Shown piece after piece: positions 1 through 7,458 of a DNA stretch of 64,000 nt. Numbering within the stretch: the stretch's first letter is position 1; each line of letters opens with the position of its first letter. The stretch covers positions 141,064 through 205,063 of the forward strand of contig CAVTWU010000017.1 of assembly GCA_963738475.1 (NCBI GenBank), given 5' to 3'. Below the pieces are notes generated by a model. It saw only the letters and a program-made list of their open reading frames with translations, searched no databases and was not told the DNA's origin. The translations under genes were made by a program, and so were the position numbers. The stretch comes from an uncultured Chloroflexia bacterium. GTDB lineage: Bacteria; Chloroflexota; Limnocylindria; Limnocylindrales; CSP1-4.

Positions 1-418
1 ATGAGCGCCTTGATCGCGTACAGCCCGGCGAGCAGGCCGGACTTCATGTCGGTGACGCCCGGCCCGTAGGCCACGCCGTCCTCGATGCGGAACGGGCGAG
101 CCGCCGCGGTCCCCGGATCGAAGACCGTGTCCATGTGGCCGATGAGCAGCACGCGCGGCGCCCCGGCGCGGCCATCGAACGTGGCCACGACCGTCCGGCC
201 GTAGCGGCCCTCGGGGTCCGGCCGGTGCTCGACGGCGGCACCCAGCCCCTCCAGGAACCGTCCCGTCCACTCCCCGACCTGGTCGACGCCCGCCGGCGTG
301 TAGCTCCCGCAGTCGATGTTGACGAGGGTCTCGAGGTCGGCCAGGTAGGCCGGCAGGTCGGCCGCGATGACGGTGCGCAGGGCGTCGAGTTCCGGGTCGC
401 TGGCGATGGTCGTCACTC
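1..418 (-). CDS. M20-family metallopeptidase (carboxypeptidase G2/DapE-like), N-terminal part; the gene continues beyond the window start
   Basis: Minus-strand translation from a GTG near 418 reads MTTIASDPELDALRTVIAADLPAYLADLETLVNIDCGSYTPAGVD...LLIGHMDTVFDPGTAAARPFRIEDGVAYGPGVTDMKSGLLAGLYAIKAL. HMDTV plus the DMK motif is the M20 signature. It was not in the ORF track because it runs off the window edge. Confidence 0.7.
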
Positions 419-442
419 GGACCTCCTTGGCGGCCAGTCTAT

Positions 443-481
443 CCCGTGTCGTGCCCGTGTCTTGCGTGTCCTACCCGTGTC
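443..481. promoter_or_regulatory. Four direct repeats of CCCGTGTC/GCGTGTC spaced about 11 bp apart, in the divergent promoter region between the M20 peptidase and the cphA-like gene
   Basis: Seen directly: CCCGTGTC at 443, 454 and 474, and GCGTGTC at 464. The helical-phase spacing suggests a regulator binding array. Confidence 0.3.
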
Positions 482-525
482 TCGCTCGCATCTTGGCCCT
501 GCCGGCTTGCTATCCTGCCCGGACC

Positions 526-2296
526 GTGCGACTGGTGGAGACGCGTCTGCTCGAGGGCCCGAATGTCTACCGGTTGGAGCCGGTGGTCAAGCTCGAGGTG
601 GCCGTCGGCAAGCGACGGACCTGGTACGGCCAGCGCGATCCCGGTCGCCACGCCCTGGTCCGTCTCGGCGCCGACATCCCGGCCCGCGAGCTGGCCGAAC
701 GACGTCGCCGCGGTCGTCGGCTGGATCCGGCGGCTGCGCGCCGAGCACGGCGAAGGCCGCCGCGGGCTGGCGGTCCATCGCTCATCGGATCCGGGCCACT
801 GGATCATCACGTTCCCGTGGACCGGCCTGGAACGGTCGCTGACGCTGACCGAGGCCGCGCTCGCGCTCGACGGAGCGGGACGTGTCGCTCCGCCCCGACC
901 GCCCACCTGACCGGCGCCCAGGAACGCCTCGTGGCCCGCTGGACGGCCCGGATCGCCGAGGCCGGCACGACGCCGCCGTCGTGGATCCGCGACGCCGACC
1001 GGCGGGTCCCGGTCGTGTCGATCTCGGGGACGAACGGCAAGAGCACCGTGACCCGGCTCATCACCCACATCCTGCTGCTGGCCGGCCGCCGGGTCGGGAC
1101 GACCACCTCGGACGGCGTCCTCGTCGATGAGCGGATGGTCGAGCCAGGCGACTGGACCGGTCCGGGCGGCGCCCAGCAGATCCTGGCCCGGAGCGACCTC
1201 GACGTCGCCGTCCTCGAGACCGCTCGCGGCGGGATGGTCCTGCGCGGCGTCGGCTACGAGTCGAACGAGGCGAGCATCCTGACCAACGTCTCGTCCGACC
1301 ACCTCGACCTCCAGGGCATCCACACGCTGCCCGAACTGGCCGAGGTCAAGTCGACGATCTGCCGGATCACGAAGCCGGACGGCTGGGTCGTCCTCAACGG
1401 CGACGATCCGTACGTGTCGGCCGTCGCGCGGCGGGTCCGGGCGAACGTGGCGTACTTCTCGCTCCTGCCGGGTGGGTCGGACCCGGTCCGTCGGCACGTC
1501 GAGCGCGGCGGGCGCGCGTACCTGGTCCGGGGCGGCAGCCTGGTCGAGGTGAACGGGCCGGACACGACCGAGATCGCCGAGATCCGCCGCATCCCGATCA
1601 CGATCGGCGGGCTCGCCCGCCACAACGTCGCGAACGCGCTGGCGGCCGCCGGTGGCGCGCGCGGGCTGGGCGCCACGATCGAGGAGGTGAGCCGCGACGG
1701 CCTGACCGACTTCCGCCCGGACGCGGACCGGTCGCCTGGCCGGCTGAACCTGTTCCGCCTCGGCGCCAAGGTCATCATCGTGGACTTCGCCCACAACGAG
1801 GCCGGCATCGCGGCCGTCCTGGACGTCGCCCAGGGCATCGCCGGCGGGGCGGCCGGTCGCGCGGCGCCGATCACCGTCGATCATCGGGACCGCCGGCGAC
1901 CGGCCGGACGACACGCTCCGGGGCATCGGCCGGATCGCCGCCGAGCGGGCCCAGCGCGTCGCGGTCAAGCAGACCCTCGGCTACCTGCGCGGCCGGACGC
2001 CGGAGTCGGTCGTCGGCGAGCTGCTGGCCGGGGTGACCGCCGGCGGCGGCGACGCCGCGGCCGTGCCGATCTACGAGTCCGAGACGGAGGCCCTGCGAGC
2101 CGAGCTCAACGGCGGCGCTGACGGCAACGCGACCGGCGCTCGGCCCGATGCGGCCCGGGTCATCGTCCTGATGTGCCACTCGGAGCGCGAGCAGGTGTTC
2201 GACCTGCTCGCCGCGGTCGGCGCCCGGCCGGTCGACATCACGACGGAACTGACCGAGCTGGTCCCGCGCCTGCAGGAGCGTCCGCGCCGGGGCTGA
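526..2296 (+). CDS. Cyanophycin synthetase-like protein with the CphA N domain followed directly by the Mur-ligase (M) domain; the ATP-grasp (G) domain is absent; frameshifted
   Basis: The reading from GTG 526 begins VRLVETRLLEGPNVYRLEPVVKLEV, parallel to the cphA start LRVLETRVLRGPNYW. It then continues WPNDVAAVVGWIRRLRAEHGEGRRGLAVHRSSDPGHWIITFPW in a second frame. The P-loop VVSISGTNGKSTV lies only about 20 aa after the N domain. After it come VLETARGG, TNVSSDHLD and LNGDDP, and the C-terminus reads IYESETEALRAELNGG...ERPRRG with a stop at 2296. At least 3 frame changes are present. Confidence 0.65.
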
Positions 2297-2415
2297 CCGG
2301 CTGGGTCGTGGCGTCCGGAGCCACAGCCCCTTGCGTCCGGGCGCGGCGGGGCGCAGGATGCGCCGAAGCGCGGGCCGACCGGCTCGCGGATCGACGGTTC
2401 GGAGGGTTGCGATCC

Positions 2416-2511
2416 ATGGAGATGGCGATCGGCGTGCTGCTCATCCTGATCTCGCTGGCACTCATCGCGTTCATCGTCCGGACGGTCCAGGCGAACATGG
2501 TCCGAGGCTAG
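2416..2511 (+). CDS. Possible 31-aa hydrophobic peptide between the two convergent cphA genes
   Basis: MEMAIGVLLILISLALIAFIVRTVQANMVRG is a single TM-like helix. This is a weak call, made only from hydrophobicity and the position in the 250-bp convergent gap. Confidence 0.15.
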   Translation: MEMAIGVLLILISLALIAFIVRTVQANMVRG

Positions 2512-2552
2512 CCGGAGACCGCCGACCGCGCGAGCTGAGCGTCGAGTCCCGG

Positions 2553-5494
2553 TCAGCCCTCGGGGGCTTCGAGTTCGCCCGGGTCGGCGAAGGCCGTGCC
2601 GCCGCGGGACGTGCCGGCCGCGGCCATCGCCTCGCGGTAGACCGCGATCGCGTCGTCGACGCAGCACACGACCAGGTCGCCCGGGATGGCCCGGCGGAGC
2701 GCGGCGCGCACGGCGGCCATCTCCTCGAGGATCTTCTCGGCCCGGGTCGCGCGGGCCGTCCCGGCGGCCTTCGCCGCCCGGACGCCCTCGAGCACGTTCG
2801 TGGCGGTCTCGCCCGGCTGTCGTCCGCGCAGGTTCTTGTCCTCGCGGACGATGAGCTCGTCGAACGCGCCGGCCGCGATCGCGCCGTAGTCGCGCTGGTC
2901 CTGGTCGCGCCGGTCGCCCGGGATGCCGAGGACGCCGATCGCCCGGCCCGGTCCGAGTCGCGCCGCCGGACGTCGCCGATCCGGCCCGCCTTCGTCTGCG
3001 TGTCGACCATCATCCGGTTGACGAAGTCGGCCAGCTGGCGCATCCCGTCGACGTTGTGGCAGTAGTCGATGACGACGCGGACCCCGCCGACATCGACCAG
3101 GTTGAGCCGGCCCGGCGCCTGGAAGAACGACGTCGAGAAGGTCCGCAGGCCCTGGCGGATGTCGTGCAGGTGGGCGCCCGGCGGCCCACGCCGCGGCCGC
3201 CGCGGCCAGCGCGTTCGCCACGTTCATCCGCGCCCGGCCGCCGAACGTGGCCGGGATGAGGTGCGTGTACAGCACCGGCATCGTCCGCGACCCGAGCTTG
3301 CAGGACGATGAGCTCGCCCTCGTCGGTCATCTCGAGGCGGAACGCCGCCCCGCCACGGCCGGTGTGGCCGTCGACCCGGTCGTAGCCGTCCTCGCCCTTG
3401 GTCATCGACATGCTGAACAGCACGACCCGGCCGGCGCAGTGGCGGCCCATCCGGTAGACGTGGCTGTCGTCGGCGTTGAGGACCGCGGTCCCCGAGCGCG
3501 GCACGGCCTCGACGACGACGCCCTTGACGTTGGCCAGCTGGCCGATCGAATCGATGCCGCCGAGGCCCAGGTGGTCGCCGGTCACGTTGGTCACGACGGC
3601 GACGTCGTTGCGGTCGTAGCCGAGGCCCTCGCGCAGGATCCCGCCGCGGGCGACCTCGAAGACGGCGGTGTCCACGGTCGGGTTCTGGAGGACCATCTGG
3701 GCCGACTTCGGCCCGGACATGTCGCCCTTCTTGATGAGCCGGCCGTCGACGACGATGCCGTCCGTCGAGGTCATCCCGACCCGCCGGCCCATCAGCTTCA
3801 GGATGTGGGCGATCATCCGGACGGTCGTCGTCTTGCCGTTCGTGCCGGTCACGGCGACGATCGGGATCCGCGCCGACGAGCCGGCCGGGAACAGCGAATC
3901 GATGACCGGCCGGGCGACGTACTGCGGCTCGCCCTCGGTCGGGTGGGTGTGCATCCGGAAGCCGGGCGCGGCGTTGACCTCGACGATCGCGCCGCCGGTC
4001 TCGCGGACGGGGGTCGTGATGTCCGGGCAGATGAAGTCGATGCCGGCGACGTCGAGGCCCACGATCCGGGCCGCCGTCTCGGCGATCTCGACGTTGTCCG
4101 GGTGGGCCTCCATCGTCCGGTCGATCGACGTCCCGCCGGTCGACATGTTGCCGGTCAGGGCGAGCTTGACCCAGGTCCCCTCGGGCAGGACGTCGTCCAT
4201 GCCGTGGCCCTGGTCGCGGACCAGCTCCTCGGCCGCCTCGTCCACCTTGATCCGGGTCAGGACCTTCTCGTGGCCGATGCCGCGGCGCGGATCGCTGTTG
4301 GCGATGTCGACCAGCTGGCGGACGGTGTGCTCGCCGTCGCCGGTCACGCTGGCCGGGACGCGCTCGGCGATGGCCGCGACCTTGCCGCCGATGACCAGGC
4401 AGCGATAGTCGTTGCCGGCCACGTACGACTCGACGACGACGTCGCCGCCGCGGCTCTGGGCGAGCGCGCCCTGGAACGCGGCCCGGACCGCCTCCTCGGA
4501 GCGCAGGTCGAGGTGGACGCCGCGGCCGTGGTTGCCGTCGAGCGGCTTGACGACGCACGGGTAGCCGATGCCGCTTCGCGGCCGCGACCGCGCCCTCCTC
4601 GGTGTCGACGACGTCCGCGCGCGGCACCGGCAGCCCGGCCGAGTCGAGCAGCCGGTTGGTCAGGCTCTTGTCCGACGCGATGTCGACGCCGATCGCCGAG
4701 GTCAGCGACGTCATCGTCGCCCGGATGCGCTGCTGGTGGACGCCGTGCCCGAACTGGACGAGCGAGTGGCGGTCGAGCCGGATGAACGGGATGTCGCGGC
4801 TGACCGCCTCGTCGATGAGGGCCTGGGTGGACGGGCCGAACGCCTGGCGCTCGGCCAGGCGGATGAGCCGCTCCATCTCGGGCGCGAAGTCGAACGACGA
4901 CGTCGGGGTCGTCCGGCGCGACGAGGTGGTTGACCAGGGCGACGGCCATCCGGCCGGCCTCGAGGCCGACCGCCTCCTCGCGGTACTCGAAGATGCAGTT
5001 GTACTGGCCGTGCTTGCCGGCGGCCCGGGTCTTGCCGTGGCGGACGTCCGTGCCGGCGAGGTTCTGGAACTCGAGGGCGACGTGCTCGGCGATGTGGCCG
5101 ACCCACGTCCCCTCGCGCAGCCGGCTGATGAAGCCGCCGCGGCGGCCGAGCGAGCAGGCGTGATCCTCGAGGCTCGGCATGCAGCGCGACGAGCGCGTCG
5201 GTGAAGTCCGGGATCAGGTTGGACGGGTACTCCTCGAGCGACGCCGAGGTCCACGAGCATGGCGGATGACCGGCTCGCGCGCCCAGTAGTTCGGGCCGCG
5301 CAGGACGCGGGTCTCGAGGACGCGCAGGGTCGGGGCGGGACCGCCGGTCGGGGCCGGCTTGGCGGCCCGTGCCGACTTGCTGGGCTGCGTCGCCGTGGCC
5401 GCTGCGGTCGCCGACTTCGAGGCCTTCGCGGCGCCCTTGGTCGGCGTTCGCTTCGGTCCGGACGCTGATGAGCTCTGGGCCACGGGACTCCTCC
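2553..5494 (-). CDS. cphA: Cyanophycin synthetase CphA (N, ATP-grasp and Mur-ligase domains) with an Ala/Lys-rich N-terminal extension; at least 5 apparent frameshifts
   Basis: Fragments across frames read: N domain LRVLETRVLRGPNYWAREPVIR / LEEYPSNLIPDFTDALVALH / PSLEDHACSLGRRGGFISRLREGTWVGHIAEHVALEFQNLAG; linker DIPFIRLDRHSLVQFGHGVHQQRIRATMTS; ATP-grasp MAGNDYRCLVIGGKVAAIAERVPASVTGDGEHTV...VEVNAAPGFRMH; M domain VTGTNGKTTTVRMIAHILK...TNVTGDHLG; C-terminus HNVANALAAAAAAW...VCCVDDAIAVYREAMAAAG with a stop at 2553. Confidence 0.8.
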
Positions 5495-5599
5495 TCCGTC
5501 GGCGGCCGACGCCGCCCACCTGGACGCTGATCAGCTGGAGGCGGCCTCGCCGCCGGGCAGTGCGTGGAGGGTCGGGCGTCGCCACCCGTCGGCGACGGC

Positions 5600-6370
5600 G
5601 AAGGTCGAAGCGATAGCCGGCCGGCAGCGAGTGCAGGACGACGCCGCTGATCATCAGCGGCCGGTGGCCGTGGACCTCCCAGGCGTCGGTCTCGGACTGC
5701 GACGCCGTCGACGACCGTGATCGAGCCGCGCCCGATGACCTCCATGACGTGGTCCGGGCCGACGACGCCGGCCGTGTCCTCGTCCACGCCGAGCCCGAGC
5801 AGGGACGGGTTCTGGGCGATGAGGCTGAGCAGCCGGCCGAGCCGGTTCCGCTGCTGGAAGTGCTGGTCGACGATGACCCCGGGCAGGACGCCGAGGCCGG
5901 CGGCGATCTGGGCCATCCGGTGCTTGGGGGTGGCGCCGGACGCCCCGAACGCGATCATGTGGCTGGACATCGCCGAGGCCCCGGCGGTCGTGCCGGCGAC
6001 GACCGCGCCGTCGCGGAACCGGTCCATGATCGCGTCGGCCAGGAGCGTGCCGCCGATCGTGGAGCTGCAGGCGGAGCTGGTTGCCGCCGGTCATGAAGAT
6101 CCCGGTCGCGTCGCGGACGGCGGCGGCGTTGGCCTCGTCGTTGGCCTGGGGGCGGGTCACCGCGTGGAGCGGGCGGACCCGCGGGACGCCCAGCTCGCCG
6201 AAGACCTGGCGGTAGCGCTCGCCGGCTTCCATGCCCATCGAGGACGCGGTCGAGATCACCGCGATGGTCGCGTTCTCGCCACCGGCGAGGGCGACGAAGC
6301 GGCTGAGGATGACCCGATCGCGGACCTTGTCCTCGGCGCCCCCGATGATGATGACGGTTCCGTCAGACAC
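5600..6370 (-). CDS. cphB: Cyanophycinase CphB (peptidase S51), frameshifted
   Basis: From GTG 6370 the reading is VSDGTVIIIGGAEDKV...IAVISTASSMGMEAGERYRQVFGELG...IFMTGGNQLRL. A second frame gives DRFRDGAVVAGTTAGASAMSSHMIAFG...VIVDQHFQQRNRLGRLLSLI, and a third gives HSLPAGYRFDL. The 3-prime end is unclear. Confidence 0.75.
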
Positions 6371-6479
6371 AGACTGGCAACCCTGACCGTGCGGCGATGA
6401 TCGGCGAAGGATAGCAAGGTGCGGTGGCCCACCGTCGGATCCGGCCCGGACCGGGCGTGGATCGAGGGCGTGACGGGCC

Positions 6480-7458
6480 ATGGGAGAATGCCCGCGCGAT
6501 GAGCGACACCCCGCCGACCCGCCCGGCCTGCAGCCCGTCCCGGGATCCGCCGGCGGCCGCGGCCGGGTCGTCGTGGACCTGCGCGACCTCGTCGACGCGC
6601 CCACCCGTCGCCGCGCCGGGGTCTGTCCGCGGGCCCTCCGGCGCCAGACGACGCGCCTGCGCGATCCCCGCCGGATCGCGGCGATCATCCTGCTGAGCGT
6701 CTGACCTTCGCGCTGCTCGCGGCCGGGCTGATCGCGCGCGGCGAGGCGGCCGGCGCGGACGCCCGCGCGTACTGGGCCGGCGTCCGGCTCTGGCTCAACG
6801 GCGGCGACCCGTACCACCCGAGCGGCCCGTTCCTGCCGTACGTCTACGCGCCGTGGATGCTGCCGCTGTTCGTGCCGTGGGCGGTCCTGCCGTGGGACGT
6901 CGCCTGGTTCGTCTGGCGCGGCGGCGACGATCCTGCTGCTGCTCTGGACGATCCACTGGGCGTACCGCCGACGGCCGCTGACGACCGCGGTCATCTTCGC
7001 GTTCCTGGCCTTCCCGTTCGGGGCCAACCTGGACACCGGCAACATCAACCTGCAGCTGACGCTGATGCTGTGGGCCGCCCAGTTCACCGGGCCACGGCTC
7101 GGCGGGGCTGCTGTGGGCGCTCGCGACCTGGATGAAGTGGGTCCCGGTCGTGTTCTGGCCGATCCTCGCCCGCGATGCGCAGACGCTGGGGCCTGCTCTG
7201 GCTCGCGGTGTCGGTCGGGCTGAGCATCCTGACCCTGCCGCTGACGATCATCCAGCTCCAGACGCTGTTCGGATTCGGGGCGCGCCCGATCCGGCTCGAC
7301 TACCTCGTCTACCTCTGGGCGTTCGTGCCGTGGCTCTATCGCCGGCCGGATCCGTTCGACTTCCTCGGCCGGCGACCTGGCGTCGGTGGTGGTCAGGGCG
7401 CGGGGTCGGCTGCGGGATGCGCGGGTCGCGACAGACCGGTGCGCGGGAGCCGGGCTAG
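6480..7458 (+). CDS. Polytopic membrane protein, GT87/DUF2029-like glycosyltransferase fold; frameshifted; start uncertain
   Basis: Hydrophobic segments RIAAIILLSV / TFALLAAGLIARGE, then YHPSGPFLPYVYAPWMLPLFVPWAVLPW, FAFLAFPFGANLDTGNINLQL and LWLAVSVGLSILTLPLTIIQL are spread over three frames. Confidence 0.4.

Follow-up and report, generated by a model that had tools for sequence, protein, structure and literature searches.

An apparent cyanophycin synthetase derivative without an ATP-grasp domain in Limnocylindria (Chloroflexota)

Introduction

Is there a cyanophycin synthetase that has dispensed with its ATP-grasp domain, and if so, what may such an enzyme do? The question is raised by a plus-strand gene in a 64,000-nucleotide stretch of DNA (the window) from an uncultured Chloroflexia bacterium (contig CAVTWU010000017.1, positions 141,064 to 205,063). 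Cyanophycin synthetase 1 (CphA1), composed of an N domain, an ATP-grasp (G) domain and a Mur ligase-like (M) domain, makes its polymer from aspartate (Asp) and arginine (Arg), and CphA2, which has N and G domains and a dead M domain, re-polymerises dipeptides. A natural form combining an N domain with an active M domain would be the missing reciprocal of CphA2. A sequence-only reading of the window had put forward the plus-strand gene as such a form, lacking the ATP-grasp domain and convergent on a minus-strand cphB-cphA operon. Here we call this CphA-derived ligase gene (window positions 526 to 2296, plus strand) NM, and we consider whether its G domain is really missing, what its two remaining parts are and what they may be used for.

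Results

The window has a G+C content of about 73%, and the reading frame of NM as sequenced is split over two frames, as seen in the open reading frame (ORF) listing and in a three-frame translation. The frame was corrected against L001, a relative from a public metagenome-assembled genome (MAG) whose DNA is 90.5% identical. Alignment of window positions 520 to 2300 with L001 revealed four extra single bases, near positions 689, 871, 889 and 1879, in addition to one in-frame three-base insertion. Removing the four bases yields one open frame from a GTG at 526 to the stop at 2296, the product of which is, over its full length, 95.4% identical to a database protein (P0001). The sequence-only reading had advised establishing the true frame; doing so leaves an uninterrupted protein of 588 amino acids and reveals no hidden ATP-grasp region. 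Insertions of the same type break cphA and cphB, about once per 300-400 base pairs (bp), and the GT87-family glycosyltransferase gene beyond cphB likewise lies in pieces across several frames. Since the same errors are found in these three genes, the frameshifts in NM do not reflect gene decay: they are sequence errors and not pseudogenisation.

Pfam and NCBIfam scans detect no ATP-grasp domain, either in the window protein or in its intact homologues. What NM matches instead is Mur_ligase_M, Mur_ligase_C and, in part, the cya_phycin_syn model. In the corrected protein the motif GHWIITFPW occupies residues 90-98 and the P-loop GTNGKST residues 167-173 (window positions 1027 to 1047, plus strand). 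The 68 residues between them are more than the approximately 20 that had been estimated from the uncorrected sequence, but they are far below the approximately 325 amino acids of a G domain, so the original argument that NM has no room for one still holds. Moreover, a search of 5.8 billion proteins recovered more than 120 intact NM homologues of 584-598 amino acids with 77-95% identity. They are annotated solely with Mur_ligase_M and Mur_ligase_C, and are named 'Mur ligase family protein' by NCBI and 'cyanophycin synthetase' by JGI. At these lengths, the absence of the G domain is real. Domain scans, spacing and homologue lengths after frame correction thus all bear out what had been proposed.

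NM also matches 405 stretches in GTDB species genomes (one genome per species). The best 80 of the 405 cover the full length at 74-100% identity; their sources are Chloroflexota MAGs, mostly labelled Candidatus Limnocylindrales or Limnocylindria, a few of them probably mis-binned. NM is an intact gene under purifying selection that is conserved across hundreds of species. It is confined to Chloroflexota, and its named sources are mostly Ca. Limnocylindrales. It could still be argued that the G domain was taken out by an assembly deletion, or that NM is a degenerating duplicate of cphA, and the four frameshifts in the window copy would fit such a view. However, cphA and cphB show insertion errors of this kind too, GT87 is split over frames, and in hundreds of independent assemblies the protein is intact, with 584-598 amino acids and invariant catalytic motifs. 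The intact homologues, the GTDB matches, the frame correction and the 95.4% match to P0001 refute the idea of an artefact or a decaying pseudogene, to which we attach next to no probability. The missing G domain is real and not a deletion artefact.

The ligase half of NM consists of an M core and a lid. The M core (residues 156-396; window positions 994 to 1716, plus strand) carries the motifs GTNGKST, TTTSDG, LETARGG, SDHLDLQ and RHNVANALAAA and matches PF08245 with an expectation value (E) of 2e-20. The lid (residues 397-566), delimited by PF02875 and by alignment to the CphA1 lid, carries SPGRLNLF, DFAHNEAG, GDRPDD and KQTLGYLRGR and is followed by a C-terminal tail of 22 amino acids (lid and tail, window positions 1717 to 2293, plus strand). 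In a phmmer search of all PDB sequences, residues 156-524 of NM align to residues 484-842 of the Synechocystis CphA1 M domain with an E of 5e-70 (7LG5), and MurE and other Mur ligases follow at 1e-10 or worse. P0001 scores 74.6 bits against PF08245 (gathering cut-off 24) and 30.2 bits against PF02875 (cut-off 28.4). NM is a member of the Mur ligase superfamily. Against the TIGR02068 cya_phycin_syn model it reaches 318.9 bits (E 6.5e-95; cut-off 850 bits) and against NF010623 277.4 bits (cut-off 877), which in both cases falls short of the cut-off. The matches are limited to model positions 474-759, the cya_phycin_syn match to 474-756, and NM stays below the 850-bit equivalog cut-off because the remainder of the cya_phycin_syn model is absent from it.

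The residues that bind ATP and Mg in TeCphA1 are K499 and T500 of the P-loop, T522, E558, and R731 and H748 of the lid (PMC9427784). Alignment of NM to TeCphA1 and SuCphA1 shows that the equivalents of all six are kept, within GTNGKST, TTTSDG, LETARGG, SPGRLN and DFAHNE. With all ATP/Mg residues in place, NM looks catalytically competent.

The M core is preceded by an N-like domain (residues 1-118; window positions 526 to 881, plus strand), which is predicted to consist of a beta-hairpin (RLVETRLLEGPNVYRLEPVVKLE), a helix, the strands VHRSS and GHWIITFPW, and a backing helix. BLASTP aligns NM to the N domain of the organism's own CphA over the first 40 amino acids only (NM RLVETRLLEGPNVYRLEPVV, CphA RVLETRVLRGPNYWAREPVI; 38% identity, E 5e-7). 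In SuCphA1 the equivalent hairpin bears a hydrophobic loop that touches the M domain (PMC9262961). A phmmer search of 1.84 billion representative proteins with residues 1-159 gave 144 matches, which were family members or fragments and included no CphA1 of about 900 amino acids. When 90 NM N-termini were compared with 37 Limnocylindria CphA N domains by hhalign, the two groups matched over 124 columns with 89.8% probability and an E of 1.8e-6, a result that, at an effective number of sequences (Neff) of about 2 and hence low diversity, is supportive rather than conclusive.

An AlphaFold2 model of NM was obtained from a 57-sequence alignment of the NM family only, from which CphA1 rows were excluded to prevent circularity. 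Its predicted local distance difference test score (pLDDT) is 85.2, with values above 90 at the N-terminus, and its predicted TM-score (pTM) is 0.80; it replaced a model built from eight close homologues, whose pLDDT was 45. Foldseek searches of the PDB with this model place CphA1 structures on top, with E of 1e-37 to 1e-34. The alignments to 7LGJ and 7LG5 cover the whole chain of about 870 residues with query TM-scores (TMq) of 0.72-0.74, compared with 0.60-0.62 for M-only alignments, and the superposition of the N domain was deduced from these aligned lengths and scores rather than from a domain-only search. In the model the N-domain fold is packed against the M core. Together, hhalign and the model indicate that NM begins with a CphA-type N domain of reduced length, which docks on the M core in the manner of CphA1.

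In place of the approximately 325 amino acids of the CphA1 G domain, NM has a linker (residues 119-155; window positions 882 to 993, plus strand) that is predicted to form one long helix. According to the AlphaFold2 model, residues 129-144 bridge to the M core at the position of the G domain, and the alignment to SuCphA1 begins at residue 156, which corresponds to Su residue 484. The N-like domain has no Cx19HxxEH, the primer-generating metallopeptidase motif (endo-cyanophycinase site) found in 83% of CphA1s (PMC9262961); the CphA helix that carries HxxEH sits in a gap of the hhalign alignment.

How does NM relate to known enzymes? CphA1 (TIGR02068; 7LG5, 7LGJ, 7WAE, 7LGM) is its best match in sequence and structure. 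The two share the ATP/Mg residues of M core and lid, and the model gives NM an N-terminal domain of the same fold class, docked on the M core. However, NM has a 37-residue helical linker instead of a G domain and a shorter N domain without Cx19HxxEH, it fails PF18921, it scores 319 rather than 850 bits against TIGR02068, and 33 CphA1-invariant positions are fixed to other residues. NM is thus not a member of CphA1. Like CphA2 (7TA5; PMC10273328), it is a reduced CphA1 derivative in which only one domain is catalytic and the N domain, of low identity to CphA1 N, is non-catalytic and lacks the peptidase motif. In CphA2 the G domain is active and the M domain is truncated and inactive (PMC10273328), whereas NM lacks G and has a full M core and lid, which excludes it from CphA2 as well. 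Alignment, hhalign and the model are all consistent with NM being the architectural counterpart of CphA2, with an N-like domain and a complete M domain and no G domain, as the sequence-only reading had implied.

With MurC, MurD, MurE, MurF, pMurC and pMurE NM shares the Mur_ligase_M and Mur_ligase_C fold and acyl-phosphate ligase chemistry. These enzymes, however, match it at an E of about 1e-10 as compared to 5e-70 for CphA1, and its scores against the respective NCBIfam models are far under the cut-offs. Moreover, its N domain is CphA-like and not UDP-MurNAc-binding, and its gene lies outside a cell-wall cluster. MurT, PgsB/CapB and FolC are likewise stand-alone Mur-fold ligases, acting on non-murein carboxylates, but they resemble NM only marginally (E 1e-4 to 1e-7), lack an N domain of the CphA type and have other partner proteins. 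By sequence and model, NM appears functionally nearest to the M half of CphA1, and in architecture it is reciprocal to CphA2. NM is a descendant of cyanophycin synthetase 1, with only about 43% identity to the M domain of the organism's own CphA1. We found no description of an N+M form of cyanophycin synthetase in open-access papers and preprints, and the papers found there under the name 'CphA3' deal only with Aeromonas beta-lactamase. NM is a new architectural variant of cyanophycin synthetase.

The genomic context of NM was surveyed by tblastn in 84 related loci, with counts limited to loci that have enough flanking sequence. In the window, the 5' part of a gene for an M20 metallopeptidase of the CPG2-like glutamate carboxypeptidase subfamily (positions 3 to 416, minus strand; tblastn, 97% to the M20 of L001) is divergent from NM, at an intergenic gap of about 109 bp, and is cut by the start of the window. 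M20 matches NF004788 with an E of 3.5e-90, which is under the curated cut-off. It is found divergently upstream of NM in all 73 loci that could be scored, with a gap of about 85 bp. The cphA-cphB pair lies convergently downstream within 10 kilobases (kb) in 70 of the 72 informative loci. The invariant, tight genomic partner of NM is M20 and not cphA. Farther upstream are genes for RidA, AzlCD, gamma-glutamyltranspeptidase (GGT) and glutamate dehydrogenase (GDH), and the surroundings of NM are those of amino-acid and nitrogen metabolism. The loci all belong to a single class and share 74-100% protein identity, so that the conserved gene order is weak evidence of function.

The neighbouring operon has the organisation expected from the sequence-only reading, which had described a minus-strand gene with N, G and M domains downstream of cphB. 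By HMM (hidden Markov model) scans and tblastn, cphA (positions 2553 to 5483, minus strand) encodes a canonical CphA1 with an N domain, an ATP-grasp G domain, and an M core and lid (PF18921 E 1e-33; ATP-grasp, Mur M and C domains); it is frameshifted and convergent on NM. The same scans identify cphB (positions 5546 to 6370, minus strand), upstream of cphA in the same operon at a gap of 63 bp, as a cyanophycinase gene (Peptidase_S51, TIGR02069). In the resident CphA1 the P-loop of the M domain is intact and a Cx19HxxEH motif is present, so that there is no sign of its needing a split partner. Neither a sigma-70-like promoter nor an intrinsic terminator was found between NM and cphA. Immediately past cphB follows the gene for the GT87-family glycosyltransferase (positions 6510 to 7392, plus strand; tblastn), which is conserved in most related loci.

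In Limnocylindria CphA1 proteins the N domain is preceded by an extension of some 55 residues, which is of low complexity and has abundant Ala, Pro, Lys, Ser and Thr (L001 residues 1-55; window positions 5330 to 5483, minus strand). The same region is a site where indels between window and reference cluster. Compared with a 90-92% identical relative, window positions 1 to 6400 carry roughly one surplus single base every 300-400 bp; almost all differences of this kind are insertions, and every gene examined (NM, cphA, cphB and GT87) is frameshifted. Since these insertion-biased errors extend across genes, any ORF-based reading of the window requires prior frame correction.

Downstream of NM lies a small ORF of 31 amino acids with a single transmembrane segment (MEMAIGVLLILISLALIAFIVRTVQANMVRG; positions 2416 to 2511, plus strand) that is conserved in related loci. 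In at least 30 of them it follows NM at a distance of 80-600 bp, and its tail, RTVQ(A/S)NM, is invariant. The product is probably a genuine small membrane protein, which may belong to a module with NM and M20. Some loci have a cassette between NM and cphA (L065 12-18.8 kb, L068 13.1-18.8 kb, also L033, L046 and L054), which contains an ABC transporter (SBP_bac_8 and two permeases), Amidohydro_3 and, directly beside cphA, an arginase-family gene. This cassette fits the arginine and nitrogen theme. In L001 (12359 to 14239) and about ten other loci, a gene for a Castor/Pollux-TrkA-like channel, absent from the window, is inserted between NM and cphA.

One MAG, MFD09368.bin.2.48, has two complete M20-NM-cphA-cphB-GT87 clusters on different contigs (L006 and L017), whose NM proteins share 98% and 80% identity with P0017. 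Either the cluster is truly duplicated or the bin is mixed. Finally, the most divergent N-like fragment is P0259, which has five weak relatives. One of these, P0375, approximately 35% identical to P0259, comes from a Thermomicrobiales-labelled MAG (L085, 2646 to 3041). The N-like domain is the only part of it that is seen, since the end of the contig cuts the gene. Its context (ParB, Rce1-like) includes no M20 upstream.

Discussion

What could a ligase of this architecture do? We put at roughly one in two the probability that NM is a stand-alone ATP-dependent side-chain ligase which acts on a cyanophycin-type aspartyl acceptor without extending the backbone, and whose action M20 may reverse. 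The proposal is made by analogy with CphA1, the M site of which takes polymer that ends in an undecorated Asp and is seated between the N domain and the M core, and adds Arg to it via an acyl-phosphate intermediate (PMC9427784). In NM, the acceptor would lie in the groove that the N-like domain forms with the M core; it could be cyanophycin itself, a piece of cyanophycin with an undecorated Asp at its end, poly-Asp or an isoaspartyl peptide. ATP would phosphorylate the free carboxylate of the acceptor, and the amino group of the incoming amino acid would attack the acyl-phosphate to form an isopeptide bond. Since NM has no G domain, it could not extend the backbone and would be a side-chain or terminal ligase, serving to decorate, repair or re-load what CphA1 has made; backbone synthesis from Asp is not expected. 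The adjacent M20 hydrolase would plausibly carry out the opposing removal step. The residue that is added need not be Arg, because acidic lid residues of CphA1 are replaced in NM.

A number of results weigh against this proposal, and several of them concern the N-terminus. Neither three intact NM homologues nor the isolated N-terminus gave a match to PF18921 at E up to 10, and the NM N-terminus does not score with TIGR02068. With a ten-sequence N-terminal profile, a search of all PDB sequences that admitted E up to 10 recovered only RuBisCO by chance and no CphA1. The N domain, which the sequence-only reading had called clear, is therefore not clear: plain HMMs do not recognise it as a CphA N domain and BLASTP covers 40 amino acids. 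The sequence-only reading had named such a failure to score as grounds for refuting its proposal. It is hhalign and the structure model that overturn this outcome and support an N-like domain. Its homology thereby leans on a predicted rather than a solved structure and on the low-diversity hhalign, and the superposition with CphA1 was reached indirectly.

The lid and the genomic context add to these reservations. We compared the M domains of 78 NM sequences with those of 59 Limnocylindria CphA1s and of SuCphA1. Of 150 positions that are invariant among the CphA1s, 84 are kept in NM and 33 are fixed to another residue. The fixed changes include DHLGLG to DHLDLQ, R778P and, at acidic positions of the lid, D781T, D794Q and D801T, and E800, a further acidic lid residue conserved in CphA1, is mostly Q in NM. 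Peptidoglycan Mur ligases bind the incoming amino acid in the lid. In CphA1 the lid has a charged surface that apparently touches cyanophycin (Miyakawa et al.). With acidic lid residues replaced, the donor or acceptor specificity of NM may differ from that of CphA1, Arg addition is not to be assumed, and the substrate could be something other than cyanophycin or Arg. As to the context, the distance between NM and cphA varies from 1 to 9346 bp (median 868 bp), two of the 72 informative loci have no cphA within 10 kb, and common descent rather than function could account for the synteny with cphBA. Finally, NM belongs to no named family.

Some of these points would fit a NM that is a Mur-type ligase re-purposed for a substrate unrelated to cyanophycin and that forms a two-gene module with M20, for example one in which a small peptide or amino-acid conjugate with gamma or beta linkages is made and trimmed; the adjacency to cphBA would then be inherited synteny. 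M20 is the sole invariant neighbour (73/73), the 1-9346 bp that separate NM from cphA hold unrelated inserts, and two loci are without cphA within 10 kb. The 33 fixed differences, with four conserved acidic lid residues of CphA1 lost, and the occurrence of the divergent homologue P0375 in another context (ParB, Rce1-like) point in the same direction. However, the M domain of NM is much nearer to CphA1 than to any other Mur ligase, and a CphA-type N-like domain has been kept, which in CphA1 shapes the polymer groove at the M site (PMC9427784). Moreover, cphA-cphB are still near in 70 of 72 loci despite the insertions. On balance we consider an unrelated substrate possible, if rather unlikely.

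Two further explanations keep NM in cyanophycin synthesis. It might be a subunit or partner of CphA1 that forms a hetero-oligomer through its N-like and M surfaces and provides extra M-site capacity or regulation. N and M domains do form oligomer contacts in CphA1, in which the N domain can act in trans (PMC9262961), and the co-location of NM and cphA agrees with the earlier idea of a split-function partner. Yet with P-loop and Cx19HxxEH intact in the resident CphA1 there is nothing to complement, and the two genes are convergent, not co-transcribed and often several kb apart. The approximately 43% identity between NM and the M domain of its own CphA1 moreover marks it as an old, independently evolving paralogue, and such a partnership seems improbable to us. 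We find it quite improbable that NM is a primer or dipeptide synthetase, which would join Arg to free Asp or a short Asp peptide to supply CphA1 with beta-Asp-Arg-type starters. De novo initiation by CphA1 is very slow (PMC9262961), and an M-only enzyme could in principle carry out the Asp + Arg step. The adjoining CphA1, however, has Cx19HxxEH and should be primer-independent; the N-like domain kept in NM suggests a polymeric rather than a monomeric acceptor, and NM has lost the acidic lid residues that would be expected to accommodate a basic substrate.

If NM is a side-chain ligase on an aspartyl acceptor, it would isolate the side-chain-ligation half-reaction of cyanophycin synthesis in one small soluble enzyme. 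This would be of use for dissecting polymer recognition by the N domain and the M core, and as a tool for decorating poly-Asp or cyanophycin with chosen residues in biopolymer engineering. The constant pairing with M20 moreover provides a concrete two-enzyme hypothesis, testable with recombinant proteins. A more specific version, which we offer tentatively and think unlikely, is that NM and M20 form a load-and-unload cycle on an intact poly-aspartate backbone. M20 would strip side-chain or terminal residues from cyanophycin, and NM would re-attach them at the cost of one ATP each, or install a residue other than Arg. If this were true, Limnocylindria would have a rechargeable or chemically distinct cyanophycin-like nitrogen store, and NM, a 'CphA3', would be the first stand-alone ligase for cyanophycin side chains found in nature. 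NM directs attention to nitrogen-storage biochemistry that is as yet unexplored in Limnocylindria, a lineage of soil and freshwater represented here by MAGs only.

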